A stretch of 64,000 nucleotides of DNA from assembly GCA_038087875.1 (NCBI GenBank), contig CM075991.1, forward strand, positions 7,256,001-7,320,000. Reading direction: 5' to 3'. Below the pieces are notes generated by a model. The model searched no databases. It saw only the letters and a program-made list of their open reading frames with translations, and was not told the origin of the DNA. The number at the start of each line of letters is the position of its first letter. Position 1 is the stretch's first letter. This DNA comes from Malacoraja senta. Lineage: Eukaryota. The translations under genes were made by a program, and so were the position numbers. Positions 4,727-62,416 of this stretch are shown here, piece after piece.

Positions 4727-4817
4727 AGACAAAAAATGCTGGAGAAACTCAGCGGGTGAGGCAGCACCTACGGAGAGAAGAGATATGCGACGTTTCGGGT
4801 CGAAACCCTTCTTCAGT
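4727..4817 (-). mobile_element. Penelope-like pLTR fragment with intact hammerhead core (4789-4816)
   Basis: Minus strand reads CTGAAGA A GGGT TTCG ACCC GAAA CGTC. Confidence 0.75.
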
Positions 4818-5257
4818 CACTGTCGCTTATTAAAACAGACCTTCATTCACGTTTGGCTCAAGAGTAACTCGGGAGAGGAACTTGATAACTCGGGAGACGA
4901 ACTTGGAACATCGCAGAAATGACAGTTAACGGCAAACTTGAGTCATACCCGTGGGAACTCGGTTAAACTCTTGATCATACACTTGGAATCTCGTGCACAA
5001 CCACGAGTCTTTCGCTCGGGGTACCTCGTGGGTCAGCTCGCACAGTGTGACAGGGCTCATAGGGTGGATTTTCAGAACCTTTGTTCCAAGGGTGGAAATG
5101 TTGATGACAAGAGGGCACAGTACTAAGGTGAGTGGGTGAAAGTTTAAAAGAGATGTGCAGGGCAGGTTTTTTTTTTACACAGACCATGGTACGTGCCTGG
5201 AACCTGCTGCCAGGAGTGGCAGTGGATGCTGATGCAATAGTAGCGTTTAAGATGCTT

Positions 5258-6102
5258 CCGGAAGTGGCGGCGCTGTCGTACAGCAGCGACTCGCCTGCAG
5301 TCCGTCTGTTTTTACTTTTTATGTTGTTTTCTTTTGTCCTGTTTTAGTTAAATTTTAGTTTATTGGGTTGTGTATGTGTGGGGTGGGGGGGTGAAACATG
5401 ACTTTTGTCTCTTCCTTCGGGGGAATGCGACTTTTTCTTGTCGTATCCCCCTTCTCTGCCTCCGTCTGCGCTGAGGCCTAATGGCGGAGCTGCCGGCCTC
5501 CAACTCCAACCGACCGACCGACCGACCTCGAAGCTCCGGAGGCAGAGCCAGGACTTACCAGCGCGAGGCTGGCCTGCTTCGGGGCTGCGGTGGCATTCCG
5601 GCGGTGGCGACCAAAGACACTGGTGGCGACCTGAATCCGGAGGCTCGGCCGCGGGCCCAGTGGACGACATCTTCGGGAGCGCGCAGGTCACAGGTTGGTG
5701 ACCTGTTTTTCTGGGGCTCCCGCAACTACAGATGCGTCCGCTGGACTGGAGGGCGGCAGCTTCGGCAGCTTCGACCACCCCGGGCCGCGGAGTTTGAGCC
5801 GGCCCGTCGCGGAGCACGGATTCAGCCGCGGGATTGCCTTACTTACCATCACCCGGTGGGGTCACAACATCAGAAGCCTGGATCACCTCAGCGCAGAGGG
5901 AGAACAAGGAGGGAAGAGACAGAGACTTTAAGACTTTTGCCTCCATCACAGTGAGGAGGTGCCTGGTGAACTCACTGTGGTGGATGTTAATTTGTGTTTA
6001 TTGTGTGTTTTGTTATTTATTATTATATGTATGACTGCAGGCAACGAAATTTCGTTCAGACCGAAAGGTCTGAATGACAAATAAAGGAATCTCTAATCTC
6101 TC
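5258..6102 (+). mobile_element. GC-rich non-coding retroelement (LINE-derived non-autonomous)
   Basis: Splits a CR1 (..TTTAAGATGCTT | TAGATAGGC..); ends in hairpin TTCAGACC-GAAA-GGTCTGAA (6055-6074), AATAAA and a short repeat tail. Confidence 0.65.
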
Positions 6103-6564
6103 TAGATAGGCGCATCACTATGCAGGGAATGGAGGAATATGGACCACGTACAGGCAGAAGAGATCGGGTTAGATTGGCATTATGTTTGGTGTGGACATTG
6201 TTGGGCAAAGGCCAGTTTTTGAGCTGCACTATCTTGTGTCCAATGTTCTATGTTCCATTAACAGTGGTGTTGGGATTGATTAGAACGTTCTTCTGTCAGG
6301 CATGATGTGTTTAGTTTAGTTTAGTTTAGAGATACAGCGCAGAAACAGGCTCTTTGGCCCACCAACGATCCTCACACATTAACACTACCCTATGCACACA
6401 CTTGGGACAATTTTTACACATACACCAAGCCAATTAACCTACATACCTGCCCGTCTTTGGAGTGTGGAAGGAAACCGAAGATCTCAGAGAAACGTACAAA
6501 CTCCGTACAGGCAGCACCCGTAGGCGGGATCAAAGCCGGGTCTCCGGCACTGCAAGCGCTGTAA

Positions 6565-7257
6565 AGGGCCTGTCCCACTTACATGTCCTTGGCACGCAAA
6601 TTACGCGACCCCGTGGTCGCGTTGAGGCACACGGGCATCGTATGGCGAGCCGGGCCGGTCCCACTTAGAAGCGCGGGTGGGGTATGTTGTGCGCGACATC
6701 GCGCGGGGCTCCGAAATTTTTGTAGTGAACAAAATCTTCGCGCGCCACCGGCCTGTCGCGTAACTGACGGTCAAAGTGGGACAGGTCCAAGACCCCGGCG
6801 CGACGCAACGTCTCACCTTCAACAGCAGCAGAAGCAGGCAAACGATCGCCGAGCTCGGCCTGGGGCTCACGGCCGTTGCTGTCCGGATCCGCCCCCACTT
6901 CTACTCCCAGAGCGGGGCCAAGAAAATTGAAGATAGACACAAAATGCAGGAGTAACTCAGCGGGACCGGCAGCATCTCTGGAGAGAAGCAATGGGTGACG
7001 TTTCGGGTCAAAGACCCTTCTTTTCAGACTGAAGAAGAGTCTCGACATGAAACGTCACCCATTGCTTCTCTCCAGAGATGCCGCTGGTCCCGCTGAGTTA
7101 CTCCAGCTTTGTGTCCATCTTCAAATGACATCACGCGCTCCAGATGGCTTTGCGTACGCATGGAATCGCGCCCGATCTTCGCTGGACCGTCGAGGCTCAA
7201 CGCGACCACAAGGTCGCGTAATTTGCATGCCAAGGACACGTAAGTGGGACAGGCCCT
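6565..7257. mobile_element. PIF/Harbinger-type MITE
   Basis: TIR AGGGCCTGTCCCACTTAC.. / ..GTAAGTGGGACAGGCCCT; perfect TAA TSD at 6562-6564 and 7258-7260. Confidence 0.92.
6926..7124. mobile_element. Inverted pair of Penelope-like pLTR/hammerhead repeats
   Basis: ~95-bp arm and its reverse complement centred on ..TTCAGACTGAAGA.. Confidence 0.75.
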
Positions 7258-7779
7258 TAAGGCAGCAACTCTAGTGTTACGCCACCGTGCCGCCCTGTTC
7301 TCAATAATATGGACAGCATTGCCTGGTATACTAATCCTTGAATGTGAACTAATTCCAGACATGTCTCAATGGAGTGTTTCTTTATATTTGATAATAACCC
7401 TTCTTTGCTTAAGAATGCTGCTGCAGTCTCTTTCCCCAACACAATTTCTTCACTCGATGCATTATTCTCTGAAGTTGACTGCGTTATCAAGCCATGCGTT
7501 ACCTGACAGCAAACATGTTTTGAGTTAAGGTCTCGTTTCAGTTTAAATGAGCACCATCAGGCCGGGTGCTTCTCAATATTTTATTCATTGCAAACAGAAA
7601 TAAGATTAATATTGGAATAGACAACAAACTACTTACACCCTTGAGATTATCATGGTGAATCCTTTGAATTTCTATTGAACTATTGACATGCACCGTGTAG
7701 CAATACTTGGAGCACACACATGTGGTGTTACGTGGTGTTCAGCAGAGCGCCTGTTCATTTCTGTGATGCAGCAATGTTT

Positions 7780-8058
7780 CGTTTAGTTTAGAGATATAGC
7801 AGGGAAACAGGCCCACCGAGCCCACATCGACCAGCGATCCGCGCGCATTGACACTATTCTAGGGACAATATACATTTAGACCAAGCCAATTAACCTACAA
7901 ACTCGTACATCTTTGGAGTGTAGGGGGAAACCGAAGATCTCGGACAAAACCCACGCTGTTACGGGGAGACTGTACAAACTCCGTACAGACAGCACCTGTA
8001 GTCGAGATTGAACCTGGGTCTCTGGCGCTGTAAGACAGCGACTCTAACGCTGTGCCAA
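7780..8058 (-). mobile_element. V-SINE (HE1-like)
   Basis: Same consensus as 6310-7295. Confidence 0.8.
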
Positions 8059-8149
8059 AGCAAGCATTTTAATGCACATCTCTGCCCTTGAGAACGTGAT
8101 AGAGAATCCTCCTCTCGAACAACTGTGTTCCATTTGGTAAATGTAAACG

Positions 8150-12929: not shown

Positions 12930-13235
12930 GAAGATAGACACAAAATGCTGGAGTAACTCAGCAGGACCGGCAGCAGCTCTGGTTAGAAGGAACGCGGGAC
13001 ATTTCAGGTCGAGACCCTTCTTCAGACTGAGAGTCAGGGGAGAAGGAGACACAGAGATATGGAAGGGAAAGGTGTGAAAACGAGACATCAAAGGGGTGAA
13101 ATATAAGGAAAATGTAGAATGGATCATTGTTGGCCTGGGGAAGCTGACAATGAAGCATACAAGATAAAATGTATCAGTGGGCAGTCAGTGGTCGGAGAAC
13201 TAGAATGGGGAAAGGATGGAGAGAGAGGGAAAGCT
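12930..13235 (-). mobile_element. Longer Penelope-like 3' fragment including hammerhead-like core
   Basis: Same repeat plus ~210 bp upstream pyrimidine-rich sequence, resembling 32528-32897. Confidence 0.7.
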
Positions 13236-14586
13236 TTTGTTTAAACTCTGAAATCAATATGTAAAGTAGTTCTGCTACAACCCAAATTTGCACAGCTCTG
13301 AACCTTTCCTACCCATATACCTACCCATTACTGTACCTGTCTTAACCTTTCTTTATATGTTTTTTCCATAACGTGAGGTTTGTTAAGATTGTAGTTATTG
13401 CGTTGTAGCAGAACCACCTGTATTGAAAAATACAAGAGACTTGATCACAGTTTTGCAGGTATTCTCTTTCAAATATCTATAGACTTCCCATAATAGACAC
13501 AAAATGCTGGAGTAATGCAGGCAGCAGCTCTGGATAGAAGGAATGGGTGATGTTTCGGGTTGAGACCCTTCAGACTGGCAGCATCTGCGGTTCCTTCCTA
13601 TTTTTTTTTTCCATTTTCCATCTCTACCGACACTGAGGTCACCATTTAACCTAAATGGTTCATCTTTGGATGTGGGTGGAACTGAGTGCATGGTGGAAGC
13701 ACCAGTCACACAGAGAGAAGAGAGAGAGAGAGAGGTGTAGATTGCACACACTTCACTAGAGGTTGGGATTGAATCTGGATCCCGAAGATGTGAGACAGCA
13801 GCACTAACTGCTTCACTGCTGTTGTTCAACCCAGCACTGGATTGTCAGGAAACGACTCTAAAATGTCTTCACATTCCAAATTTCCATTCTTTTATTAATC
13901 AAGCGCATCGGTTTAGTATGATCATAATTGTTCACAAAAACTGCATATTTTTCTGGTCAAATACAGAAAAGATCTGTGATCTTCACTAATCCTCGAATTT
14001 TGATCATCCCCAAATTTAATCTCCATTGCCCATTGTGAAACGAACATTGTCTCGTGCCCTGAGAAACAGCGTTTGTGCTGCCCAGTCATGAAAAAGACCA
14101 CACATGAATACAATCAAGCGGTCCACAAGGCAAAGATAAGGGATAAAGGGAACAACATTTAGTGCAAAAGATATAACGTTGAAGTCCAATAAAGTCCGAT
14201 TTAAAAAAAAAGCTCAGAGGTCTCCAATGAGGTAGATAGGGGGTCAGAACTGCACTCGTGCTGACGAGAGGGCTGCTCAGTTGCCTGATTACAGCAGGGA
14301 GAAACTGTCCTGAATCAGAATTCTTTGTTCTATATGTGCAGGCAGAGGCGAGTAATAATTTGCACCGACATTGTGGGCTGAAGGGTCTGCTCCGGTGCAG
14401 TGTTGGTCTAAGTTCCAGCTCGAACCTATTCTATCTCTCTCTTTCCTCCTCATATATTCTACTTAAAAACTATCTCTTTGACCAGCCTTCAACCATCAGA
14501 TGGATACAAAAAGCTGGAGTTACTCAGGGGTCAGACAGCATCTCTGGAGAAAAGGGATAGTTGACGTTTCGGGACGAGACCTTTCC

Positions 14587-15705: not shown

Positions 15706-15980
15706 GAGGCAGAGTGGCAGACTGTCTGCCTTACAGCACCCGAGACCGGTTTCGATCCCGACTCTGGGTGATGTCTGTATGGAGTTTGTACATTGTCCCT
15801 GTGACCGCGTGGGTTTTCTCCGCGATCTCCGTTTTCCCCACACTCCAAAGACGCAACAGGTTTGTAGATTAATTGGCTTGGTATAATTGTAAATTGTCCC
15901 CAGTGTGTAAGACAGTGTGTGGGATTGCTGGTCTGCGCAGACTCAGTGGCAGAAGGGTTCCGTGTCGTATCTTCAACTAA
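15706..15980 (+). mobile_element. V-SINE (HE1-like)
   Basis: GTTTCGATCC B-box-like, GGAGTTTGTAC V-domain-like. Confidence 0.75.
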
Positions 15981-17359
15981 AAAAAGTCCTGACCTGAAAT
16001 ATCGTTTGTCCATGTTCTCCAGAGATGCTGCCCTGACCTGCTGAGTTACTCCAGCACTATGCGTCGTGTTCTGCCCCATAAATACTGTGGCTTCTCCAGT
16101 CTAAAGAGGGGTCTCGACCCGAAACATCGCCCATTCCTTCTCCCCAGAGACACTGCCTCACCCGCTGAGTTACTCCAGCTTGTGTGTCTACTTCTCATAT
16201 CATTCTCCACCCTGGCTACAGAGGTAGTAGAGTATTGGGGTCGTGGAACAGTTGTGATTTTTTTTTTTTTTTTTAAGACGACGGAAGGAACTGAGTAATT
16301 ATAAGCAATTAAGTGGTCGACAAGTTATTGGAATAAATTTGAGGTGAGTATAAATCACTTTGAAACTCAAATTATCAAGGATTTGTCAGTGTGGGAGGAT
16401 TGTGCATAGCTATTGAATTTTTTTGGGGTAATTAGGCAATGTGTTTGATGTAATTTCCATGGATTTTTAGCAAGGTTTTATCCATGTCCATGTGGCACTC
16501 TGGTCAAAATATTAAGGCCATGAAATCCAAGGGGGATTATTAAATTTGATCCAAATTGACTCAAGCAAAGCATATAGTTGATCACAGTTTTTTTGTGAAT
16601 GGAAGATGGTTTTCAACGGGGCTGAGAATTCAGGCTTTTCTTTTTTTTTTCATTATGTATTAAATGAACTTAGTAGCTCAATTTAAATGTCAGGAAAATG
16701 GTAAATATTTTTTTTTTAGATGATATAAAGGTTGGTTGTGTAGCTGAGTGTGAAGCAATGCTTTACACTGCAGGGGAATATCCATGAACTGGTTGGTTGC
16801 GAAAATAATTAGAAACTGGATTTGGTGCAACGGCACAACATGGTACAAAGAGAATGGGAGGAGCAGTGTGGTGGATCCAAGGGACTCTGAAATGTCCTTA
16901 CGTGAAGCTGAGCAGGTAAATAAGTTGGATGAAAAGGCATTTGGAATGCTTTTCTTTTGTCACGAATTCAAATAGAAGAGTGGGATAATGATGCTGTCAC
17001 AACACTATGTAGGCCACAGATTGACTACTGTGTACACTACTGAGTGCTACATGATAGGATGTTTCAGATTGTGCTGGGGATTCATGAGGGTGTTGCCAAA
17101 ACTGGAAAATATGACTTATGAGGAAAGATTAAAGAAACTGTTTGCATTGACCCAGATGACCCAGAGAAGGCTGAGAGGAGACTTTATTGACGCGTATAAA
17201 ATTAAATAAATAGGAAACATAATAACATTGAAAAATAGGTGCAGGAGTAGGCCATTCGGCCCTTCGAGGCAGCACCGCCATTCAATATGATCATGGCTGT
17301 TCATCTAAAATCAGTATCCCGTTCCTGCATTTTTCCCATATCCCTTGATTCCTTTAGCC

Positions 17360-18685: not shown

Positions 18686-19049
18686 TACTACCTAAGGTAG
18701 TAGGAAGGGTCTGAAGAAGGGTTTCGACCCAAAACGTTACCCATTCCTTCTATCCAGAGATGCTGCCTGTCCTGCTGAATTACTCCAGCATTTGGTGTTT
18801 ATCTTCTGTGTAAGGTATATCTGATATGTTTAGATTGCATGGAAAACAACTTTGGTACATGTGACAATAATAGATCTAAACCTAAGCGATATATCTTGTG
18901 AGGAGTTGCCGGTGGTATCGTTCAGTGCTAACTGGGATGATGCAAATGCAAGACAAAATGTAGGTTACTAACTGCAATGGATGTGGGGTAATGACTGAGG
19001 AGATAGCATGTCAGTCGTAAATACAGTCCTGCATATTTCTTACACTTTC

Positions 19050-19625
19050 ATTTAGAGATACAGAACGGAAACAGGCCCTTTGGCCTACTGAGTCGGCGCC
19101 GACCAGCGATCCCCGCACACTTACACAATCCTAGGGACACACTAGGGACAATTTACAATTTTTACCAAACCAATTAACCTACAAAGATACACAAAAATGC
19201 TGGAGAAACTCAGCGGGTGCAGCAGCATCTATGGAGCGAAGGAAATAGGCAACGTTTCGGGCCGAAACCCTTCTTCAGACTCAAAGGAAATAGGCAACGT
19301 TTCGGGCCGAAACCCTTCTTCAGGTTTCGGCCCGAAACGTTGCCTATTTCCTTCGCTCCATAGATGCTGCTGCACCCGCTGAGTTTCTCCAGCATTTTTG
19401 TGTACCTTCGATTTTCCAGCATCTGCAGTTCCTTCTTTAACAATTAACCTGCAAACCTGTACATCTTTGGAGTGTGGGAGGAAACCAGAGATTCCGGAGA
19501 AAACTCACTCAGGTCACGGAGAGAACGTACAAACTCCGTACAGCTAGCACCCGTAGTCAAGATCAAACCTGGGTCTCTGGTGCTGTAAAAGGCAGCAACT
19601 CTGCTGCTGTGCCACCGTGCCTCCC
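19050..19625 (-). mobile_element. V-SINE interrupted by Penelope-like insert
   Basis: SINE halves flank 19186-19440. Confidence 0.8.
19186..19440. mobile_element. Penelope-like mini-element: two tandem hammerhead cores plus inverted arm
   Basis: Cores on minus strand at 19251-19278 and 19296-19323; ~15-bp TSD CAATTAACCT(A/G)CAAA (19171-19185; 19441-19455). Confidence 0.8.
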
Positions 19626-21709
19626 TAGTCATTATATACTTGACTGGTTGGAATTCACTGAATGTGCACTGATCACATTTGATATAATATTCATGATTTT
19701 ACATATTCAGTCTTTCATTCTACTGGCATGATGTGATTACATTAGAGAGGTTGCAGAGGAGAGTTACTAAGATTATAAAGTTGTAGCCATGAGTTAAGAT
19801 TGGATGTGCTGGAGTTATGTTCTTTGGAACTAAGGAAGCTGAGTAAAGTCTAAATTGGAATATTTAAATCATGAATGGTCTGGGTGGAGTAAATAGGAAA
19901 GGTTTTTTGACCCTTACGAAACAGGTCAAAATCAGAGGCATTTGTTTAGTATTTAATGGAACTATTGTCATGAAGGTGAGAAGTTATTGTTTACCCAGAC
20001 GGGGTGACAGGGATCTGAACCTCCCTGCCTAAAAGGGTAGTTGAGATAGAGAAACCAATGTTACTTTTACTGAAGAAACGCCTGAAGAAGGATTCCATCC
20101 CGAAACATCACCTATTCCTTTTCTCCTGAGATGCTGCCTTACCCGCTGAGTTGCTCCAGCATTTTGCGTCTCTCCCATGTCGCATTTGTGAACTTGAGGA
20201 CTGTAACACTAAATGTAACACCGAGTGGTGGAGGTCGTTCTTTGGTTTGGCAGTTCTTCCTTGACCAGCATAGACACGTTAGACTGAATGGCCTCCTTAT
20301 ATACATTTTCTACGATTCTATGATCCTTTATTTGCAAGGGGAAGGTCCTGTAAAGTATTGGCCTACAATTAAAATTGTCCTTTTAAATTAAAGGGTAAAC
20401 CACTTGTACTTAATTGCTCATTTGTAGTGGTGTGGTTTAGACATTGTATTGTACTTTGCTTGTTGCTGGTGTTAATATTACATCCTGATTTTTTGCTGGA
20501 TCCATGCAGTGCTCACTGAAGCATTCAAGCAATAAAGCAGCATGTTAACCTCTGGGAGAAGTTAGACTTCTCGTGACAGCATCAGAAGTATTAACTATTA
20601 ATGTAACGGGCAACGCTGGCTTGGCATAACACAAAGGCTGGTAATAAACACGCCAGCACTACCTACCTCTCTACCACCACGCACTCCCTGCCACCCTTCC
20701 AAAGGGCAGCTTCAGTACGATGGTGGCTCTGGGCCACTATTAGGAATTGCTCAAAGAAATTTCATGGTCGATGCAAAATCGTGGATATCATGCTTGGCAG
20801 GTCAGGGTTAATCATTGGGAAAAAGTGATGAGATGCCAGTGGCTCGCTGCTTGCGAATTCCGAGTCCTGTTAGCAAGCACGATTTCTTGCTGGATTTATC
20901 CTTGCCCCAGATGAAATAGTGATATTATAATGAGTGGGTATGAAGAATGGCTCGGAATAAAACATAAAGTCACTTGTGTTTCTGCATTAGTATGTATTAG
21001 TGTACAACTTGCATTCCTTAAAATGATATGTTTACAGGCAGCAAAGGCACAGATTCACAGCTCTGCTTTTGCAACAGTCCAATAGTCTGAAGACAGGCTT
21101 GAATTATTTATTATTTAATTCCTAGGGAAAACCACTTGGATTCTTATCTTATTCTGTGCGGTGGAAATAATATTAGAAATTATATTGCTTGTTATGAAAC
21201 CATCTGTTTTTCAATTAGCATTTTTGGAAGGTAATTTGATTCTTAGAAAGCTACCTATTTCCACACGAGACCCAGATAGTAATTTGTAACTCAGAATTAA
21301 AACAAGGATTTAATTGACACGTTTTGCCCTTTTATTTATATAAATGGTTGATAATGAGCACTTTTCAAATCTCCTTTGAAGTCTTAATATGATAAGTGCA
21401 TTGTCTGATTTGGTTTTAAACTGTGCAGGGCATCGACTGATTCTACATTTAACTGTTTGAACCATTGCTCTAGAATTGTCCCTGTGCACCAACGTATAAT
21501 CTAGTATAATCAAGACACCTACAGGAGTGAAGAGGTTTCAAATAAAATCGCCCACCATGGGTGCTGTGGTTGACGGCTACCAATGCTGTTGATATTAGCA
21601 AAGGCAGTGGAACAGAGCTAGAATTGACCCACCCAGGTGAACTGATGGAGGAATGATGATGTTCTAGGAGAAAAACTTGTTTTTAATCCCACTGGCTGGT
21701 CCCCATTTT

Positions 21710-23930: not shown

Positions 23931-24637
23931 GATCTTCAACCACACCACCAGCACCACAGACGCGTCGGTCCCTTTACTAGACTGCCATCTCTTCCTCCCA
24001 ACCTCTATGCCCAAGGAAACTGCTGCCGTGCTAGGGCATCTTCGCGTAATGCCAGCAAGGTGCCCCACCTCAGAAGAGGAGGACTGGGCAGCAAAGCTGT
24101 GATGCAATGCATCCAATGATGAAACAACTGATTGTGATACAGTGTTTCAGTGATAAGGTAGTCATAGCCCCACTGTATTAAAATCACACTAGCCCATTTT
24201 TCATTGTGCATTGGGATTTATATTTGCTTTCTTGTGTATCCATTCTGTCTTGTTCACCAGCTTCAATTTGTTAGCTCTTAAATTATATTAGAAGTATGAT
24301 AAAAAATAAATAAGCTAAATAATATTACACATGCACTTAATTCTGGTTGATTAACTGGACAGATATTTAATTGTCCACATCTGGTACCCTGAATAAATGG
24401 ATGGATGAGAAACCTGCCACATCAGTGTCCAAGCTGAGAGGAGCACTGAACACAAACCTTGATCAGATGTACTCAGTTCACTTGGACTGATAAATAGAAT
24501 TGGTGACACGTTTAAGGACATTAAGGTTAAAACAAAATCCCAATCCAGGATTGTTCAGTGCATCCATTGAGGTGGTATTTTATGTCCAGCACATATTCTG
24601 TGTTTTGGATGCTTATAACAGAGTAAATAGCGATTAG

Positions 24638-24845
24638 ACACAAAAAGTTGGAGTAACTCAGCGGGTCAGGCAGCATCTCTGGAGAAAATAAATAGGTGAT
24701 GTTTCTAGTCGAGACCCTTCTTCTCCTTTTGTCCCGAAATGTTACCTATTCCTTTTCTCCAGAGATGCTGCCTGTCCCGCTGAGTTACTCCAGCATTTTG
24801 TGTCTATCTTCGGTTTAAACCAGCATCTGCAGTTCCTTCCTACAC
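24638..24845. mobile_element. Penelope-like inverted-pair mini-element
   Basis: Inverted arms; perfect 13-bp TSD AAATAGCGATTAG (24625-24637; 24846-24858). Confidence 0.82.
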
Positions 24846-25591
24846 AAATAGCGATTAGTTCCCACAGACACTGCTGTTCTTGTTTCCTTCATTGCACCCC
24901 TCCTTGTCCTCAGTTGCCTACTATGTTCTGTATGCCTGTATACCTACTATGTTCTGTTGTGCTCAAGCAAAGCAAGAATTTCATTGTCCTACCAGGGACA
25001 CATGACAATAAACTCACTTGACTTGACTTGACTTGACTCTGTTTACCAAGTTCCAAGCACAACTTGAGTTTGGTCTCTGCTCTCCCGATTTCGGTATCTC
25101 ATCCAGAAGAGGAATAAGCCACCGGGCTGCTTAGTGTTGTCCATCCCACGATGAGATTAGATCTGATCTTCATCTAAACTCTGCCTTGGCTCCGTCATCT
25201 TATACCACGATCAAAACATCAGAGATTAATAGCTTCAGCTAATGTGCATCAGCCTTTGTGGGAGAGATATCCATGCTTTTACCATCAATAACATAATTGA
25301 AACTTCCTCCAAAAGTTCTGATATGGAGATCGTACTTCTTTGTTCTAGACGCTTGCCCTAAAGGAACCAGTTTCTATCACCACTTTATCAAATCCTTTCA
25401 AAATCTTGACAGCTTCAATTAAACATAATGGCTTCTGTGGAATATGAAGCTAATTATGTAATCTTGCTTCATATCTGAACCTTGAAGCACTGGTAACGTT
25501 CACCAGAATGTCTACTTTATTCTTGCTAAAGAAAAAAAAGCTCTATTCGAATGGTGTGTCCAGAAGTGTACACAATATTGTTGATGTGCTT

Positions 25592-26898: not shown

Positions 26899-26901
26899 TA
26901 A

Positions 26902-42272: not shown

Positions 42273-42449
42273 GAATGAAAAGCTTGCTTGCAGCAGCATC
42301 ATCGACACATAGACTGAGACAGCACACTGATCATAATTATATACATTTCATTGAAAAGGAATAGATTGCAAAAATACAATGGAAATGAGTCCATAGTAAT
42401 GCAGGAGGTGATCCACAGTGTTTCATTGCTGAGGTAGCTTTATGCACAC

Positions 42450-42628: not shown

Positions 42629-42662
<34 letters not shown>

Positions 42663-43097: not shown

Positions 43098-44934
43098 TTA
43101 GGGTTGTGCGGTTTGATTCAAGAACTTGATGAAGTTTCTTTTCCTGAATCGGGTGCTTGGGACAACAAGGTGTATGAAGAGAGACTTGGAAGAAGATCTT
43201 GATAGAGGAGCAGCCATAGTTATATTAAATGCTGAAGCAGACTCAAAGGGTTTAACGGCCTGCTCTGCACTTAGTTGGTATGTTTCTGAAGGAGGATCAT
43301 GACCCAAAACATCATCTGTCGATTCTCTCCCCTGATATTGGCTAACCCACTGAATTCCCCCAGCATTTGTGTTTTGATCAAGATTCCAGCATCTCCAGTT
43401 TCTTGTGTCATCATTGCATGTTTCTGTAATAGATTATCACATTTGAGTTTCTCGTGATGTGGCTAATGAAAATTCAGCCATTTCACCAATGAGTTTCTCC
43501 AAAAACTGTGAAGATATATTTGGAGATTGTGCTCAGAACACTCAAAGCTCAGAAACTCCATACATCAAGAGTTAAACCTGCACCGGGTATTATCCATTAT
43601 TCATAATCTTAGAGCCGACCTTAAATTAATTCTTTACAAACCAAGATATAATCCTGTTGATCTAACAAATAACATAACACTGTCACATCCTGTTACTGGA
43701 CCTCTGGTGATGAATGGTTTCAGCAACATCAGAAGAATGCATAATCACTTCATGAGATGATTACATGTAAAGAGACATGTTCCTTTGTAGATATCTGAGG
43801 ACTGGATAAAATGGGCACAACAATTCAATCAATAAATTGTTATTTGACATCTGTAAAATGTTCAAAAAATTGAAGAATCAAGGCATATTTGTGTTGGATT
43901 GCAATGGCGTTTGACCAGGCTAAACGTTATATCTTCCAAAATAATTTTTAGTGAGTTTAAAGTCCATTTATCACACCAATCTAAATGAGAAGAATTTTGG
44001 GAAAATTGATCTTCCTAATGGACCAGGAAGGACTTTTTTTTTATCAATTATCTGAAAGTTTATTGAAGGTAAGTAAAATTGGAGGGTTCAGTGAAAATTA
44101 ACAAACCATCTGCAACATAGCCTGAGGGTGAATAAATGCAGAACTTGTTTTAAGATCAAAAGCCCCCAATTTCACAAGCAATGTTTCTATTTTTGAGGAG
44201 AGATATAGGAGCTAATTTCATTTTATTGTTTCTAACTTGTAGATAATCACAATAAAATAAGTAAATTCACACAGTCATCTTCAGCATGAATATTTCTCTT
44301 CCCCATATATCATTCCCTCCTCTTCCCCATATATATTATTCCCTCCTCTTCCCCATATATCATTCCAAGTTATCTACACACTCAGAGTTCCCACCATACC
44401 ATGCCTTCTCTTATCCCTTGAGATGTCAGTCTGACATGCCTCTGACAGAGCCTTTGATCATCTGCCTTAAAATGTTAGAAGTACAAGAGGCTGCAGATGT
44501 GAGATTCTTTCACATAAAAAAGTTCTGGACAGTCAACGTCTCGTGTCGGGACCCTTCTTCCGAAGCAATATCTGTCCATTCCATGCCCTGCTGCCTGACC
44601 CACTTTGTGTGCTTTTACCCTAATATCTTATTTTGCAGTTTGAGAATGCTTAAAGATTGGAGCTCCCAACAATGCACAATACTTGGACAGGTGCATGGAT
44701 AGGAAAGACTTACAGAGATATGGGCCAAACACAGCCAGGTGGAACTAGTGCTGAAGGGGCAACTTGGTCGACATGGCAGGTCGGGCCGAAGGTCCTCTTT
44801 CCATGTTGTATAACTCAATGACTAAAACGTTAGTCTGGCTTGATTTCAGTGTGTCAAATATTGTCTTTTTGTACTACATTTTTTTTAGTGTGATGCATTG
44901 GTTCTTGTGAAGTGCTTTGGGATATTGTTAATGA

Positions 44935-45785: not shown

Positions 45786-47311
45786 TAATGGCAGTATTTA
45801 AAGGGGAGGATTTTGTTCAGTCACACAGGCCCGTTGGACCATCAGCTACCACTTACTCCAATCCTACATTACCTTCACTCTTTCTCTTATTCCCACATAA
45901 TACCCCAGATTCTACACATTAGGGCCAATTAACCTTCATAACCAGCCTGGCTTTGGGTTGCAGGAGGAAACTTGGGCACCTGGAGAAAACAACGAGAACA
46001 TGCAAACTCCACACAGACAGCACCTGAGGCCAGGAATGACCCAGGTTTATGGCATTGGGAGGCAGCGACAGTACATAGTATTGGACTGGCCAATAATCAC
46101 ATGTGGCAGCTTGCCTCTGAAAGCACAGCTCAGACCATTAGTACAAGCCAGATAGCCTCAGATTAAAGGTTTACATGCCCAATTGATAGTGTGGTTATAT
46201 AAGAAGTTGGGGTGCATTACTTGGAAAGATACAAAGCTGAAGCAACAGGTTAAATTACCGACTTGCTTAATTCTGTGTCAGGCAGTTCCAATGACAATGA
46301 CAGCAAAAAGTGGCAATGACAGCAAAAAGAATGAAGCGAGGAGACAGTTTGACAGCCATTCTGAATTTAAATAATATTAAAAATTCTTTAGTTAAAAATT
46401 CTGCTGTTGTTCCATAAAAAAGAAGGAGAATAATCAGACCTGCAACATTTTATTCATTAGATGGCCTTTACCGTCTTTCAGGCAATCAGTAGAAAGCATT
46501 ATAAAATAAAATTCCTTGCCCTGTATTGAGCACATTCAGGCAGTTTGTCATTTTAACTAGGCATATCATTTTAATTAAAGTTATCTTTTTCACATCAGGA
46601 GGCATTATTCCATTACAATAAGATCGTATCGAGAGTTGAAGCATGATCAGCCTTCTATTGTATGAAGACTAACAGACAAATGTTCAAAAGGTATTGGGTA
46701 TAAAGGCAGCAATAATTACAGTCTCACAAAATCACTTCTACAGTTTTTTAGGGCTTCAACCTTTATATTATTTGCAAAAATAGAGGTTTAAGACAAGCAT
46801 ATATATAATGCCTATTTAGTGATTCTTTTCACCAAGAAACATCAGTGATTTCCAGAGCAGAATTCTGCACCTGGCCATGATCTAGTAAGAGACATAAGTT
46901 TTTCCTTCAAAGATTTTTATAAGGCAAGTGTTTTGAAAATGGCTTTCATCATCAGTGATACAGAGCTTATTCCACGACCCACTGTATTTACACCCGGGAA
47001 TGATTGTGGCAGTAATTTAGAAGTAAATTTGCTTCACTCAAACCCTTGGATAGTGAATTGATCCTTTGGAATGCAAAATAGTTGGCTGCATAATCTGTGG
47101 TTTAGAGAAGGAGTAAATGCCCAGGGTTTAGACATCTGAATGGCCACAAAATGATGCTCACTCATCCTCACTCATCACTACTCCATCATCCTGTGCCTGC
47201 TACATGGGATTTTATTTTATGAATCATGATTTTGCATACCGGGTTGTACCTCGGTACTTGTGACAATAAAGTATCATTGAATCCTGCACATAGAAGCAGA
47301 TGAAGAGCAGA

Positions 47312-47524
47312 CGATAGACACAAAATGCATGAGTGACTCAGCGGGACAGGCAGCATCCCCGGAGAGAAGGAATTGGTGACGTTTCGGGTCAAGACCCTTC
47401 TTCAGACTTGGCCCAAAACGTCACCCATTCCTTCTCTCCAGAGATGCTGCCTGTCCCGCTGAGTTACTCCAGCATTTTGTGTCTATCTTCGATTTAAACC
47501 AGCATCTGCAGTTCTTTCCTACAC
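47312..47524. mobile_element. Penelope-like inverted pair; hammerhead core 47378-47405 (minus)
   Basis: CTGAAGA A GGGT CTTG ACCC GAAA CGTC on minus strand; imperfect TSD GAAGA(G/A)CAGA. Confidence 0.78.
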
Positions 47525-53165: not shown

Positions 53166-53194
53166 CAGTCACCTATGGTTTGTGTGGAAAATGA

Positions 53195-53740: not shown

Positions 53741-53789
53741 ACTTATGCAGAGCGGCTATGGAAGTTGAGAAAACTGGCACTGATAGCAA

Positions 53790-53992
53790 AGATAGACACA
53801 AAATGCTGGAGTGACTCAATGGGACAGGCAGCATCTCTGGAGAGAAGGAATGGGTGGCGTTTCGGGTCGAGACTCTTCAGACTCAGTCTTCAGATCTGAA
53901 GAATGGTCTCGATACGAAACGTCACCCATTCCTTCTCTCCAGAGATCCTGCCTGTTCCGCTGAGTTACTCCAGCTTTTTGTGTCCATCTTCG
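53790..53992. mobile_element. Penelope-like inverted pair
   Basis: Inverted arms around TCTTCAGA TCTGAAGA. Confidence 0.75.
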
Positions 53993-56113
53993 GATAAAAC
54001 AGTTGACAGATTCTGGTGTTTTGTGCGTGGGAGCTTGCTGTGTGCGTTCCGAGGGAGAGTGGGGGCTGTCCCGAGGGATGCGCATGGGAAAGGGAATCTC
54101 AGGACATTTCAAGCTACCTGACCGTGATTTTTTCTGCCATTAGAAGGAATAGGCCATCTGCATCCATGATTTTGCAACATAGTATAAAATAATTTTTTGC
54201 AACCTAAGAAAGTCGCAGCATTATACTGTTGACATATTTTTGTAGCCTTTTCAGGCAGGATATGCAGAAGCCATATTTGACACAGTGCAACCCCATCAAT
54301 GTCAGCGTGATCATGGTGAGATAGCCTCCTTGACTAAGCTTGGTTGAGATACACGGGAATCTGTCCTCACCACAGAATCAAAATAAGGAAATTAGTTTCA
54401 TATCTCATCTGGACCTCCAAACATGCAACGTTACCTCAGCCTATCTTTGGGATGATCAGCCGACAGTAGTTGTCAGGTTTCTCATGGGAATTGGAACTTA
54501 AGGACTGCCAACTCAGAGGGTAGAGTGCAGCCTAATGTGTCAAGACCCATAACATGATATGCCTTGGTGCCATTCACTGTGTCTACTTCACAGGTTTTGG
54601 ATGAGCACAAACTCTTTGTTCACAAAATTCAAGATGATTCAAGCCATTTCTGTCCTCATTTGAATTCCCTCCATTCACTTCCGTGACCAATGCGGTTAGC
54701 AGTTAGCAGTGGAAAATCAACAATATGACTTTAACGGGTTAGCAGTGGAAAATCAGCAATATGATCCTTTTGAAAATGTCAAATTTGCTTCATTTGTCAA
54801 CAGATTGCTGCTCTGGTAACCACAGCAACAGCTCTGAGTCCTTCGCCCTTCCTTGAGGACTCAACATGGTGCCTTTCAATACTAAAGTGCAGCTGGCTCC
54901 AAGGGTATAATTACTCGATGGCAAGAGATGTCACTGGATGCCCACAATTTTCCAAACTCCCCCACCCCAACTTTGGAGGAATGTACCAGTCAACAGAGTA
55001 GTTGACAAAGCACAGCATGCACATTGATGGGTGAGGGTGGTTCTAAAGTGAAAACTATTGAGTTAAACAGTATGAAGGAAGCATCTTAAATGCTATCCTG
55101 CCAAGCAACAGAAATAAAAGTTGTTAATGGCAGCATATTCCTCTTACTTTGGCATTAAAGGTACCGTGGAAGTTACTCATGAAAGAAGCATTGCTCTGAT
55201 TCCTTTTGTATTGCCATGCATGTGAGTGCTGTGTTCAAAATGTTCAAATTGGCTTCCAATGGGCAGTTCAGTCCTCTGTATAATGGACAACAAATGATTC
55301 AAGTCCAGATCTATAGCCCAGCAAAGTAAAACCTCTGAGGATTTGACTGCAATGTTTCTCAACACTTTAAAACGATTGTTAATCTAGATGGTGGGTTGTG
55401 GCAGACTCGATTTCCTCCCAAAGTCTTTACTTTTGTTTTTGGGGTGGATGGATTGTTATTGATTCAACACAGATGGTACTCAAAAGAGTATAAAACAATA
55501 AAATCCATTTTAGAGGAAGAACTATCTTTTCTCTCTTAAATTATTTTCTTAAAATCTTCCTCACCGATGATCAGCTCAATCTAGGGTCATCCTTTCCAGC
55601 TCAGGGTCAGATTTTGATGACACTCTTGTTGAGAACCATGGGCCTGTTTATGTCATGAATACCAGAGCCAGGACCACTGGTATATATAAATATATATTTA
55701 TATTGCAGATATAAATATAATATAAATGCGACTAGCTAGCTCTAGTAATCCAGCCAAGGGCTGTAGCCCTTCTGTGGATTTAGAGTCACATTGAGGCCAC
55801 ATGAGCGTGGACAGCATTGATCATTCCCTGGGGGATGCTAGGAACCAGGTGAGCTTCTAATACCGTTTTTTTGATTTTTTTTTTCATGGACACCGTTAGT
55901 AATGCAAACACTGTATACATCCATCAGCTTTGGAAACAAAGAACTGCAGATGGTGGTTTATACCGAAGATAGACACAAAGTGCTAGAGTAATTCAACGGG
56001 TCAGCCGGCAGCAAAATGTCAAGTGACGTTTCGGGTCGGGCCTGAAGAAGGAACCTGACCCGAAACGCCACCTGCCCTTTTTCTCCAAAGCTGTTGCCTG
56101 ACCCACTGAGTAA

Positions 56114-57493: not shown

Positions 57494-58524
57494 TGCACTA
57501 TTCATCAGGCAACAGCACCTCGATTTGCAGAATCTTTATTCCCACTCTGATCTCTTTCCTCTGCTTGTCAATTCTGTCAACTACACTTGCTCTGACCAAA
57601 TCTGCTCATTTGCCTTCAGAACACATGGTGCTAACAGGTTTTGAATTTGTGCAATGGAGTGAAATATCTGATCGACTTCTAATTGTGCATCTTCCTTAGT
57701 TTTTTTTTTGCATCATCAAAATCTGTGGCTTTGAATTTGAGTTGTGTATGTTCTCAGGAGAGAAAGACTGCAGATGTTGGAATCTGATGCAAAAAGCAGA
57801 TTGTTGGAACAACACAGCTGCTGGAGTAGCATCTAATGGCGTGGGGGGGGGGGGGGGCGGTGGAGGGGATAAAATGATTGACTTTTCGAATCCAATCCGC
57901 AATGCAAAAAAATTAATCCTCGCGTGTTTTTATTGACAATGCACAAGTGTCAATAAGGTGTAGGTTAGGGAGGGGGGGGGGGGGACAAAATTGAGACTAA
58001 TTCTTGAGTAGAAAGGTCAATAGTTAAAGACATTGATTTGAGAAAATTAGTAAAGGGAATAAATGGAAACTCAGGAAGAAATAATCGAAAATTGGAGTGG
58101 AATTTACTGCCTGAAAGTGCAGTAATGGCAGAAACCTTTATCTCATTTAACAAATAGTTCATGAACATTTGACGTGGTGTAACTTAGAGAAAGCTACAGA
58201 ACCAGTGAGTAGAATTTGTCTCAGTTGTTTATTTTGGACATGATGGACCAGCCTTCTTCTCTTTAAGAAAGGTCGATGGTTTTATGGACAGGCATAGTTA
58301 CCAGCAGTGTCTATCTGCTCAGTATGGTGTTATGTCATCACACAAAGATTCTGCCATTTACCTAACCATGCTAATGTGGTAACATATCATATCTTGACCC
58401 AAAACGTCACGTATTCCTTCTCTCCAGAGATGCTGCTTAATCCGCTGAGTTACTCCAGCATTTTGTGTCAAACTTCGGTTTAAACCAGCATCTGCAGTTC
58501 CTTCCTAAACATATTAGAATGTGT

Positions 58525-58962
58525 ATTTAGAGATACAATATGGAACAGGACGTTTGGCCCACCAAGTCCACTCCGAACATCGATCATCCGTTCACACTAC
58601 CTCTATGTTTAAGAAGGAACTGCAGATGCTGGAAAATGTCTGAAGAAGGGCTTCGACCAGAAACGTTGCCTATTTCCTTCGCTCCATAGATGCTGCCTGA
58701 TCCGCTGAGTTTCTCCAGCATTTTTGTCATACTACTTCTGTGTTGTTCCACTTTCTGATCCACTCCCTTCACGCGAGGGGCCAATTAACTTACAAACCTA
58801 CAAATCTTTGAGATATGAGAGGAAACCGGAGCACCCAGAGGAAACTCGTGTGGTCACAGGGAGAACGTGCAAACTCCACACAGATAGCAGCCGAGGTCAG
58901 GATCAGATCCGGGTCGCTGGTGCTGTGAGGCAGCAGCTCTAACAGCTGCCCCACTGTGCCGC
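58525..58962 (-). mobile_element. V-SINE with Penelope-like insert (58605-58728)
   Basis: SINE halves flank an insert containing CTGAAGAAGGGCTTCGACCAGAAACGTT. Confidence 0.7.
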
Positions 58963-60566: not shown

Positions 60567-61076
60567 ACAGTAATCTTACGCAGTACATAAATCCATCGGG
60601 TTAGACAAGCTCAGCGGGTCAGACAACAGCGGACCCGCTGTTGAAGAAGGGTCCCAACTCGAAACATTGTCCGTTCATTCCCTCCGCAAATACTGCCTGA
60701 CCTGCTGCGTTCTTTCAGCACGTTGTGTTTTGCTCACAATTTCAGCATGTGCACTTTCTTGTGTCTGCGTTGAACGTTTGCATTTTTGCGAAGATTGCGT
60801 TGTCATTATGGTAGAATGAGTTTCAGAAGCATGCCTGAGAAACCAGGCTTGAGGTTGGAGATTTATCTACAAAACACACACTTCTGTCCAGTCTGCATTC
60901 TACTCTCTCAGTCCATACCCTCTTGAGACCGGATCATCATTCACAGTGTTCTGACTCAAATGAAATCAACTCAACACCAATTTTGAAGTCAGTATTTTAT
61001 GGTTTACTCTTATTGTATCTTATTCAGAAAGTGGGCTTTACACCCTTATGTCCAATCCGGCTTTAATACCCGAGCT

Positions 61077-61295
61077 GTGTAGGAAGGAACTGCAGATGCT
61101 GGTTTAAACCGAAGATAGACACAAAATGCTAGAATAACTCAGCGGGACAGGCAGCATCTCTGGAGAGAAGGAATGGGTGAAGTTTCAGGTCGAGACCCTT
61201 TTTCAGTCTGAAGAAGGGTCTCGACCCGAAACGTCACTCATTCCTTCTCTCCAGAGATTCTGACTGTCCCGCTGAGTTACTCCAGCTTTTTGTGT
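61077..61295. mobile_element. Penelope-like inverted pair
   Basis: Inverted arms around TTCAG TCTGAAGA. Confidence 0.8.
61205..61238 (+). ncRNA. Putative minimal type I hammerhead ribozyme (best copy)
   Basis: AGT-CTGAAGA-A-GGGT(CTCG)ACCC-GAAA-CGTC-ACT: full core, 4-bp helix II, palindromic ACGT helix III, 3-bp helix I; activity untested. Confidence 0.65.
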
Positions 61296-61442
61296 TAATA
61301 CCTGAGCAATTGATCTCAGATTGATAGCTGCTGTATTTCTCGTTACGGGAGTGACATAGTGTGGATGTTGAACCTGACAATTGGCAGTGAGATGCTGCAA
61401 GTATGTCCCACAACCATCTGTTAAATCTATTGAAGAAAGATT

Positions 61443-61781
61443 CTGTCTGAAGAAGTGTCTCGACCCGAAACGTCACCTATTCCTTTTCTCCAGAGATGCT
61501 GTCTGACCTACTGAGTTACTACAGCTTTTTGTGTCTAGCTTCTGAGGAAAGATTAAGGCAGGTTTATCTTTACTGGAATTTGGATGAGTGAGAAGTAATC
61601 TCCATCAAGAATAATGTTTAAGAAGGAACTGCAGATGCTGGAAAATCGAAGGTACACAAAAATGCTGGAGAAACTCAGCGGGTGAGGCAGCATCTATGGA
61701 GCGAAGGAAATAGGCAATGTTTCCGGTCGAGACCCTTTTGCAGAATCAAGAAGGAGCTCACCCACTGAGTTTCTCCAACAT
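61443..61781. mobile_element. Two further Penelope-like inserts (61443-61542, 61615-61781)
   Basis: Near-perfect TSDs TGA(A/G)GAAAGATT and TCCATCAAG(A/G)ATAA. Confidence 0.7.
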
Positions 61782-62261
61782 TCCATCAAGGATAAGGTCA
61801 TGAAAGGTATGAATGGGGAGGATACTGAGAGGCTCTTTACTCTGGCTTGGGAACCATGTATCATGGAGCAAAGTCTCTCAGGTTCTGGTCTGCATTTAGT
61901 TGTGAAAAGAGAAGAAATTTCATTTCTTGCAGAAATATATCTTTGAAATTCTTTATCTCAGAGGACTGTGGATGCTCAGTTGATACGTATGTCCAAGGTT
62001 AAGGCAGAGGAATTGTACACCAGAGGAATTGGAGGATATGGGAATTACATGGTTAAGAAGTTGTGGTTTGGCCAAGAACTTGAATTACAGATCAGGCTCA
62101 AAGGACTGTGTGGATGGCTTTTTAATGATTAAGATAATGCAGTGCTACTAACAAACCGCTTTCATTAAAAAGGGGAATTATCACCTATTGGAGCCCTCTT
62201 AGTCTTGGCCATTAGTATGACTTTGAATAGTATCAAGGTAAAGAGAACACAGATAGGGTAG

Positions 62262-62416
62262 GAAGGAACTGCAGATCCTGGTTTAAACCGGATAGAGTTT
62301 GGAGTAACTCAGCAGGACAGGCAGCATCTCTGATAGAACGAATGGGTGACGTTTTGGGACGAGACCCTTCTTCAGACTGATGTTTCGGGTTGAGACCCTT
62401 CTTCAGACAGGCTTCT
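62262..62416 (-). mobile_element. Penelope-like insert with two tandem degenerate cores, at the start of a CR1 3' end (to ~62745)
   Basis: 13-bp TSD ACAGATAGGGTAG (62249-62261; 62417-62429). Confidence 0.75.

Follow-up and report, generated by a model that had tools for sequence, protein, structure and literature searches.

Minimal hammerhead ribozymes in the terminal repeats of Penelope-like elements are a motif class already known since 2014, when Cervera and De la Pena described them in metazoan pseudo-LTRs (PMC4209133). The repeat analysed here shares with them CUGANGA, the unpaired base before G10.1-C11.1 and GAAA. Also alike are the palindromic 15.2-16.2 without loop 3, the sense strand, the position at both ends of the frame, and an occurrence mostly as dispersed single copies of truncated elements and as opposite-strand pairs. 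Helix II spans 4 bp in this repeat and helix I spans 2 bp, compared with 7-8 and 4-5 in Schistosoma, and the 61,500 exact cores of this genome compare with ~4,000 in coelacanth and ~9,000 in Xenopus, which were counted with other descriptors (PMC4209133). The one supplement file of that paper that was searched names no shark, skate or chimaera. Elements of the Neptune clade (Craig et al. 2021, PMC8557442) have a single frame with RT, a CX2-5CxxC linker and, at the C terminus, GIY-YIG, as do the parents found here, and also share pseudo-LTRs, partial tandems, an inverted truncated copy and a 30-40-bp tail on one end; the frame here, of 1238 aa, exceeds theirs in length and contains a proline-rich insert. 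In the available text of Frangieh et al. 2024 (PMC11167929), Poseidon of Anolis carolinensis likewise has a pseudo-LTR hammerhead and two fixed ends one tail apart, and in vitro it shows two adjacent start sites and a 'tail', with uncleaved RNA as template. Poseidon is of another clade and its frame starts inside the hammerhead, the start sites lying within the frame, whereas the ATG of the Malacoraja senta element lies ~35 nt beyond the tail. Neither a 5′ pile-up nor a one-tail rule for pairs is described for Poseidon in that text. Lastly, animal non-LTR retrozymes are, in the available parts of PMC7229834 and bioRxiv 10.64898/2026.07.22.740005, tandem hammerhead repeats from pseudo-LTRs. One array elsewhere in the genome (L224) fits this description, whereas the copies studied here are solo or inverted and carry the minimal, not the canonical, motif. 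The same part of the bioRxiv survey includes one chondrichthyan. A literature search, with most subscription journals outside its reach, found no chondrichthyan Penelope-like hammerhead family, no account of 5′ ends piling up before the core and none of paired priming in Penelope-like elements, and 'Penelope' had 0 occurrences in two shark/ray genome papers. The rebuilding of pseudo-LTRs and the purpose of the hammerhead are called open in the available texts of PMC2377424 and PMC8557442.

The window, i.e. the whole 64-kb stretch of DNA that was analysed, was searched for the core pattern CTGANGANGGGTNNNNRCCCGAAACGTY. Only five cores are intact, at 4789-4816(-), 19251-19278(-), 19296-19323(-), 47378-47405(-) and 61208-61235(+); these are exactly the positions named by an earlier, sequence-only reading. 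At ≤3 mismatches the pattern was found 22 times, and in none of 100 shuffled controls. BLAST with nine natural long copies recovered 40 pieces that merged to 29 loci, in agreement with the ~25-30 loci estimated earlier. Positions within copies are counted from 0 at the C of CTGA in the core. Among 30 core-spanning pieces, 4 are intact, 8 retain the letters of the core but have an altered stem and 18 are broken; not counted in the 4 is the fifth intact core, a second copy within the locus 19182-19447. The features are listed below, pairs without a strand.

2278..2426, minus, old, weak copy (68%), clearly repeat only over ~2278-2322
4720..4816, minus, solo stub from 0 to +95 with the intact core 4789-4816
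6929..7133, head-to-head pair, both arms beginning at ~-4
12935..13220, minus, longer copy of a different subfamily, 3′ UTR of ≥200 nt, untailed
13493..13577, minus, solo stub with broken core
14488..14585, minus, solo stub starting within the core
15979..16194, plus, two tandem stubs
18709..18809, plus, solo stub from -2 to +98, G12 lost
19182..19447, head-to-head pair of young B type, plus arm tailed; target-site duplication of 15 bp with 1 mismatch
19251-19278 and 19296-19323, minus, two intact cores 45 nt apart in the minus arm of that pair
20082..20174, plus, solo stub
24635..24846, head-to-head pair, arms untailed (+90) and tailed (+130), perfect 13-bp target-site duplication
26683..26898, older head-to-head pair, ends at +91 and +126
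32521..32897, minus, longest copy, with GIY-YIG frame end, 3′ UTR, broken core and tail
36940..37070, minus, solo tailed stub from -1 to +129
38459..38571, plus, old solo stub (69%)
40080..40172, minus, B-type solo stub from 0 to +91, perfect 11-bp target-site duplication
42083..42280, head-to-head pair
43285..43400, plus, old solo stub (72%)
44535..44562, minus, isolated core with 3 mismatches, outside the 40 BLAST pieces
47310..47524, head-to-head pair, ends at +95 and +129, intact core 47378-47405(-)
53789..54000, head-to-head pair, arms starting at -3 and -1
55938..56111, old head-to-head pair
57761..57835, minus, old fragment without core
58392..58512, plus, solo tailed stub starting at +11
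58604..58757, B-type stub (58638-58757, plus) adjoining a 34-nt inverted tail piece
60642..60760, plus, old solo stub (69%)
61076..61295, near-perfect fold-back pair, joint TTCAG-T-CTGAA, one arm tailed (+130), the other untailed (+87); core 61208-61235(+) intact, target-site duplication of 13 bp with 1 mismatch
61445..61550, plus, solo stub from -2 to +103
61614..61744, minus, solo tailed stub
62249..62416, minus, tailed stub with a duplicated core (62379-62406) before it

Judged by their sequence continuity, these repeats are pieces from the ends (pseudo-LTRs) of Neptune-type Penelope-like elements and not a stand-alone mini-element. The longest copy ends its frame in MHIDFSNLK* (minus strand, 32876-32847), the Penelope-like ORF end noticed earlier, and ~200 nt of UTR and then the broken core follow 3′ of it. 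At L023 an RT, the zinc linker CNRRRCNTC and IYC...LLYIGET are joined to the same UTR and core; the damaged L023 frames gave no Pfam match. Open frames of 1224-1302 aa with a core at both ends occur at L056, L058, L059 and L060, the linker between RT and nuclease reading CNRKRCNTC or CNRRRCNTC (CX2-5CxxC). The L059 frame matches RVT_1 (E=6.6e-6) and GIY-YIG (E=0.0015), both below the Pfam curated cut-offs, and 1015 homologues carry RT annotation. A single RT-GIY-YIG frame, pseudo-LTRs with partial tandems (24/30 full-length copies run on into an upstream partial unit) and an inverted truncated copy with a tail are all as in endonuclease-bearing Penelope-like elements. The sequence-only reading had required parents with RT and GIY-YIG, and its Penelope-like origin is thus supported; the putative placement in the Neptune clade follows the linker motif, which Nematis also has (PMC8557442). 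Copies of the youngest family number in the dozens, nearly identical and free of stops: of 96 scored matches, with the query excluded, 93 are stop-free, and 26/40 show 100% identity across the 5′ region. Four young stubs (L196, L199, L201 and L219) match the autonomous element's end at 100% identity, and every abundant core type has long parents; a separate 'mini-element' family is not supported. The value of this genome lies in scale and youth, as near-identical stop-free copies record how the elements insert.

The features of a minimal type I core are present (CUGANGA...GAAA...UH, G10.1-C11.1 and the palindromic 15.2-16.2), and the proposed hammerhead topology is supported. On the evidence of covariation in distant relatives the motif is very probably a true minimal type I hammerhead, for 20 minimal-hammerhead matches lie beside related frames in metagenome loci, against 0 in 20 shuffles, and their pairs differ in helices I, II and III. 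Within the Malacoraja senta subfamilies helix II changes are one-sided only; the switch from U-A to U.G that had been reported as keeping the stem paired does exist, but is such a one-sided change, between subfamilies. The loop CTTG would most simply be CpG decay of CTCG. Helix I has 2 bp here compared with 3-5 bp in most relatives, as judged by eye. In all seven predicted folds helix II pairing is <0.03, helix I pairing is near zero, and a hairpin between UTR and core is predicted. None of the 15 Rfam covariance-model matches at E≤5, nor of the 6 in a scan at E≤10, belongs to a hammerhead family; the microRNA-precursor matches of the E≤5 scan are the fold-back pairs. The catalytic G12 is changed in 23/100, 7/36 and 26/55 copies, the decay rate of any CpG, and no purifying selection on the core was found in dispersed copies. 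Changes are slightly rarer at core A residues (20/572) than at A in the flanks (71/1182; p=0.03), which counts against the account favoured below. The self-cutting motif is mostly decayed and probably weak. The copies had been taken as possible cryptic self-cleaving motifs; the evidence does not support that wording, as G12 has no excess conservation, the active fold is not predicted and 5′ ends do not gather at the cleavage site. Minimal hammerheads can cleave as dimers (Lunse et al., according to the available part of the review PMC6765202). Back-to-back pairs carry their cores on opposite strands, and therefore no dimer is possible from one transcript.

In a genome sample the 3′ ends are bimodal, at ~+93 and ~+130. 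Target-site duplications of 10-21 bp surround solo stubs and whole pairs alike, and no microsatellite targeting was seen in those examined. Among 347 loci there are 72 head-to-head pairs and 0 simple tail-to-tail arrangements. The pairs divide into 47 tailed/untailed, 9 untailed/untailed, 2 tailed/tailed and 14 unclassified (p=6e-6 vs independence), and of the young pairs 13/15 are tailed/untailed. Joints centred on TTCAG-(T/A)-CTGAA recur.

The 5′ ends pile up just before the core. In the genome sample 112/474 pieces start at -5..-1, a census that was aligned to nine reference subfamilies, with the young family aligned to its nearest relative, and whose histogram may be inflated by subfamilies with a UTR outside the nine. 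Counts from the young family are free of that: among 30 young copies taken in genome order, the stop lies at -5..-1 in 11 and between -6 and -45 in none; 2,290 break exactly between -4 and -3; and only 3,549 of 6,589 exact cores of this family retain the parent's 12 upstream bases. In the genome sample, piece starts number 30 at -4 and 26 at -3, compared with 3, 2 and 4 at +27, +28 and +29. A second cluster of 5′ ends lies at -312..-334. Loose contig ends fall at -6..-3 in 4/4 runs of related organisms, which we guess to be RNA and whose contigs, at 85% likeness, come without molecule starts, strand or level information. This sharp stop, 1-5 nt ahead of the core, is likely the RNA 5′ end. An extra G before the first A, as a cap might leave, is seen in 38/100 vs 27% expected (p=0.014) and in 7/84 of a random sample; being weak in the one and absent in the other, it was rejected as support.

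The account that we favour, and hold to be rather probable, is that the repeats are 5′-truncated ends of Neptune-type elements, inserted by target-primed reverse transcription from two sites and often run off at the RNA 5′ end. Insertion likely begins at one of two sites ~93 and ~129 nt 3′ of the core, and in about half the young copies reverse transcription likely reaches the RNA 5′ end, 1-5 nt short of the core, and runs off. The first RNA base would be the A in TCAGT, which would serve an internal promoter as its initiator-like motif; for Penelope the available text of PMC2377424 places an internal promoter within the pseudo-LTR, and TCAGT is not conserved in distant relatives, which counts against the initiator-like reading. 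With a start inside the repeat the same ~130-nt stretch would stand at both RNA ends, and priming in the upstream stretch would yield a short stub. A head-to-head pair would result from a single event: each cut end of the target would be extended from a different start site, after which short matches would allow the two newly made strands to be joined. The hammerhead would be kept by the transposing lineage and be a passenger in dispersed copies, its cleavage needing help from a dimer or the element protein.

Several other explanations bear on the same ends. The 5′ pile-up could reflect a stall at the UTR-core hairpin, or a snap-back of the new strand at the palindrome TCAG-T-CTGA, which would then copy itself and so make the inverted arm. 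The recurrent joints, the predicted hairpin and the second end cluster are in its favour, as are the correlated 5′ ends of the two arms (rho 0.59, p=0.02, n=15), a within-pair arm difference of 31/2604, slightly below that of different pairs (1.7%), and the self-priming proposed in the available text of PMC3846280. However, L202, L204 and L222, solo stubs that have clean duplications and lack an inversion, stop at the same place, and a second-pass stop occurs in just 1/25 (Fisher p ~0.007, with the caveat that long copies may be a selected, more processive subset); we consider it unlikely. Alternatively, the short copies may be a self-propagating, non-autonomous SINE-like family, its stubs each retaining an internal promoter and the two start sites, being transcribed themselves and recopied by the element protein, which is compatible with our favoured account. 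Sharp ends on both sides, own target-site duplications, great abundance, the internal promoter already mentioned and pseudo-LTRs acting in trans (available text of PMC3846280) all agree with this, but the young stubs identical to the autonomous end and the long parents of abundant core types make it unlikely.

A hammerhead look-alike that never cleaves, kept as a promoter or protein-binding sequence, would explain the 2-bp helix I, the near-absent helix II pairing, the one-sided changes and the lack of an Rfam hammerhead match. It is improbable given the varied helices of the metagenome matches, and the anole motif required protein for cleavage (PMC11167929, available text). The boundary also looks like a 3′ splice site, with a pyrimidine tract and CAG before TCTGA: all nine reference subfamilies are pyrimidine-rich there, most end in YAG-T, and the Drosophila virilis Penelope intron ends at hammerhead helix I (PMC4209133). 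Stubs from spliced RNA are nonetheless very improbable, as they share no upstream exon and adjoin host flank directly, many keep the AG, the 2,290 young copies break between -4 and -3, and none of the joints listed (15 of 99) is a GT..AG skip to the site. Least credible of all is a retrozyme-like short unit defined by hammerhead cleavage. The wealth of intact cores and the retrozyme-like array elsewhere in the genome would suit it, but there is no 5′ pile at +27..+29, stubs retain the whole core, and the main in vitro substrate was uncleaved RNA in the available text of PMC11167929.

Returning to target-primed insertion, only 1/25 full-length copies stop a second time at the upstream core. The simple model predicts more, so that for long copies a different template, or else a jump, is required. 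Elsewhere in the genome L224 holds a head-to-tail array of 13 x 384 nt, with a hammerhead per unit, inside one 11-bp duplication; no window locus has such an array. The rare second stop and this array would both fit a circular template. Tentatively, there could be two templates, a capped linear RNA giving run-off stubs, and hammerhead-cut, ligated circles giving seamless partial tandems that lack a second stop and, from a 384-nt deletion derivative, the 13-unit array in a single insertion. Were this so, it would be genomic evidence for hammerhead-driven rolling-circle reverse transcription in an active vertebrate element, and the hammerhead would also regenerate the pseudo-LTR. Concrete testable predictions follow from the halt ahead of the core, the rule of one tail per pair, the rarity of a second stop and the array bounded by a duplication.

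The window had been described as saturated, which is true of it but not special, as the whole genome is likewise dense. Piece density is 0.63/kb in the window and 0.47/kb in the sample (474 in 998.8 kb); cores at ≤3 mismatches number 22 (0.34/kb) and 175 (0.18/kb) respectively, and the five exact cores compare with 2.0 expected (p=0.054). At only 1.3-2.5x the genome average, the window was rejected as a hot spot. The prediction of a very large number of motifs in the genome is borne out by the 61,500 intact cores, and by extrapolation ~0.9 million pieces make up at least 5% of genome DNA.

Numbering from the C of CTGA (hammerhead C3) as position 0, helix II of the core pairs +8..+11 with +16..+19, G12 falls at +20 and the predicted hammerhead cut lies between +27 and +28. 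The window contains 5 exact and 22 near matches to this core, with none in 100 shuffles. Using nine natural long copies as BLAST references we recovered 40 repeat pieces forming 29 loci, in line with the ~25-30 loci counted by the sequence-only reading; 18 are solo, 1 is a tandem and 10 are head-to-head (one doubtful), with none tail-to-tail. The longer copy that had been said to carry a PLE-like ORF end, at 32521-32897 (-), does so: after the frame end come ~200 nt of UTR, then a disrupted core and a tail. A genome sample of 100 segments of 10 kb, placed at fixed round-number coordinates on contigs C1-C22 (998.8 kb without N; length weighting inexact, small contigs omitted), contained 474 pieces at 347 loci and 5.4% of its DNA was covered, which extrapolates to ~0.9 million repeat pieces in the 1.94-Gb assembly. 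Exact matches to the intact-core pattern number 61,500 genome-wide (reversed control 0), and two single 31-mers match 13,276 and 11,606 times. Relative to the genome average the window stands at 1.3x by pieces, 2x by cores allowing ≤3 mismatches and 2.5x by exact cores (p=0.054). The window repeats are a real feature, of a class that is already known.

The 3′ end of the repeat is fixed across copies, whose upstream reach varies. Walking upstream from the repeat led to the end of a GIY-YIG nuclease, and in the copy L023 the UTR of the repeats is continuous with a reverse transcriptase (RT), the nuclease and, between them, a CNRRRCNTC linker, confirming the Penelope-like assignment made from the window. 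A protein search identified a sister family much younger than that of L023. As a lower bound, 93 of the 96 matches scored in addition to the query are stop-free, with open frames of 451-1302 aa. In its example, L059, a frame of 1238 aa opens with ATG, has a core on either side and lies in a unit of 3,996 nt; Pfam matched RVT_1 and GIY-YIG in this frame, both below the curated cut-offs. Across 265 nt of the 5′ region 26/40 scored copies are 100% identical, and the young family has therefore moved very recently. By the linker-motif definition given in PMC8557442, it would be placed with Neptune (or Nematis). The closest named homologues come, at 60-69% identity, from Rhincodon, Hypanus, Chiloscyllium, Stegostoma and Mobula, making a cartilaginous fish the likely host. 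Within the window, the loci of the young core type (19182-19447, 40080-40172 and 58638-58757) are immediate relatives of the young lineage, and most other loci belong to older subfamilies and match their references at 68-95%. To speak of a separate 'mini-element', as was done from the window, overstates what these copies are; the interest of the feature lies in the young intact family and in testable hints about template use.

The L059 frame (L059:2530-6243) has a long proline/serine/threonine-rich insert at ~residues 150-500, in which a peptide is repeated three times; its length varies among copies through indels, and the homologues are 700-950 aa. Three database proteins named as host genes (P0123, P0127 and P0219; a kinase, a chitinase-domain protein and XIAP) align with the element along the greater part of the query, indicating gene models that absorbed element copies.

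Copies end 3′ at about +93 (untailed) or +129 (tailed), a difference of a 36-nt tail, and these two ends match two adjacent initiation sites described for the anole element in PMC11167929. The 5′ ends peak at -5..-1 (112/474 pieces), with no peak at the hammerhead cut site among the 474 sampled pieces. Of the 6,589 exact cores belonging to the youngest family, 3,040 are without the parent's 12 upstream bases. When 30 young copies were taken in genome order, 11 stopped at -5..-1 and the other 19 extended 46 to >1,500 nt upstream, leaving the interval from -6 to -45 free of stops; a further 40 young loci, picked for the upstream 12 bases, have scattered end points. Target-site duplications of 10-21 bp surround the solo short copies, or stubs, L202, L204 and L222 and the whole head-to-head pairs L197/198, L205/206 and L240-L243, whilst four window loci have a duplication score above the level reached by 1.5% of random intervals. 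At stubs L199 and L222 a few core bases are copied twice at the 5′ junction, and such doubled bases are expected from template jumping as the enzyme meets the template end. An upstream word common to the copies, TCAGT, resembles the initiator consensus. An internal promoter with an initiator and a downstream element is described for the Penelope pseudo-LTR in PMC2377424, and an initiator-like TCACT for rotifer pseudo-LTRs in PMC3846280. Loose contig ends fall at the same boundary in four runs of related organisms, and may be just the genomic stubs of those organisms.

If capped RNA from -3 were the sole template, full-length copies should stop there too. Among 30 copies reaching the frame start, 5 end downstream of the upstream core and 25 reach that core; one of the latter stops, at -5, and 24 continue into an upstream partial unit. 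Compared with 11/30 first-pass stops this gives p of about 0.007, computed as 1/24 and with some copies being units of shared arrays and hence not independent. With 24/25 copies lacking a second stop, long copies therefore require a multimeric or circular template, or else a precise switch onto the downstream repeat. At L224:1218-6230 (G000:C1:28.902-28.907 Mb) we found 13.1 copies of a 384-nt unit that vary at a single base; in each unit UTR, core, tail and the initial 135 nt are joined back onto the frame end. This array begins at +72, finishes at +92, has a single 11-bp duplication around the whole and is inserted in a LINE remnant. A short insert later expanded by unequal crossing-over is a possible origin; judged from its sequence, the array appears retrozyme-like and hints at the outcome expected from copying a small circle, circles having been proposed for these elements in PMC4209133. 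Further internal-deletion derivatives, with frame start joined to frame end, are present at L229 and L252. At L225 (G000:C1:3.87-4.04 Mb), 19 of the first 100 young-core matches have one common foreign upstream sequence at 2-5-kb spacing; this is probably one stub multiplied as part of a bigger tandem array. A second 5′-end cluster, at -312 to -334 from the core in L059 and inside the nuclease-coding region, holds 5 of the 24 second-pass copies and several first-pass copies, and may reflect a further RNA start site or stalling at a hairpin.

Head-to-head pairs tend to combine the two 3′ ends. Of 72 simple pairs, 47 are tailed/untailed, 9 both untailed, 2 both tailed and 14 unclassified, an excess of one-tailed pairs (p=6e-6) given solo copies of which 125 are untailed, 99 tailed and 29 unclassified. 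Young-family pairs are one-tailed in 13/15 cases, with 1 ambiguous and 1 complex tandem. One duplication around both arms indicates one insertion event. The main rival account of that event, in which a single new strand folds back to make the inverted arm, is favoured by palindromic junctions in pairs and by the correlated arm lengths of a pair. Most simply, the two target ends would both be extended, each from a different start site; the protein of the anole element is described in PMC11167929 as cutting and extending both strands, and as a predicted dimer. A minor 5′-end peak at +10 (within +9 to +17; 19/474 pieces, mostly the tailed arm of pairs) is seen in the window at 19323, 24733, 47407 and 58392, and from +9 to +17 there is an alternative palindrome made up of helix II together with GAAAC.

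The core letters fit the minimal type I hammerhead as set out in PMC4209133, and no hammerhead model matched in Rfam scans of the repeat. In 80 metagenome loci with related frames (33-63% identity) we obtained 20 hammerhead-descriptor matches, with 0 in 20 shuffles. Their helix II sequences differ widely with pairing kept, and the palindrome of helix III takes several forms (ACGT, ATAT, AGCT). Helix I, no part of the descriptor, has by eye at least 3 pairs in 11/14 distinct types. The hammerhead structure is therefore conserved in the clade, and the earlier hammerhead call holds. Copies in this genome have a helix I limited to two pairs (a U-A or U.G followed by G-C), helix II differences among subfamilies are one-sided, and predicted helix II pairing is <0.03 in 7/7 folds, with competing hairpins winning. 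This poor predicted fold agrees with the weak or protein-dependent cleavage reported elsewhere: activity low even as dimers for minimal hammerheads (PMC4209133), cleavage of the anole element only with its protein present (PMC11167929) and 1/9 frog dimers cleaved (10.64898/2026.07.22.740005). G12 sits in a CpG and is altered in 23/100, 7/36 and 26/55 copies picked regardless of core. CpG change rates are 0.256 in the core vs 0.199 in the flank, T is alike in both, and A changes slightly less in the core (0.035 vs 0.060, p=0.03). By these rates the dispersed copies are evidently not being kept as ribozymes, and the phrase 'cryptic self-cleaving motifs' claimed too much for them, since core CpG including G12 decays as in the flank and folding is predicted to be poor. 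In head-to-head pairs the cores lie on opposite strands, therefore giving hairpin RNA and not dimers; pairing in cis could occur only for same-strand duplicates such as 19251/19296.

Other features of the window are as follows.
33237-33322 (+), HDV-like ribozyme candidate, by eye and with the Rfam CPEB3 model
8695-10242 (+), 515-aa stop-free frame, from the sequence
48700-49710 (-), 40495-40965 (+), 50806-51267 (-) and 11400-11729 (-), fragments of another LINE
34105-34712, common two-part dispersed repeat, about 8 sampled loci at 76-96%
11084-11283, assembly gap of 200 bases

By eye, the HDV-like candidate has P1 (GGGATC/GATCCC), P2 (GACAGAA/TTCTGTC), P3 (GCC-TCCTCGT-GGC), a P4 stem and GCGACAA; it scores 26 bits against CPEB3, below the gathering value of 35 (E=5.7e-5 on 301 nt). 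No frame was found downstream of it, a second copy (L134:1260-1406) is 91% alike over 147 nt, and it is likely the 5′ end of another retroelement. The 515-aa frame had no Pfam match and looks like the C-terminal region of a LINE protein of L1/Tx1 type. The longest fragment of the other LINE matches RVT_1 in Pfam at E=3e-24.
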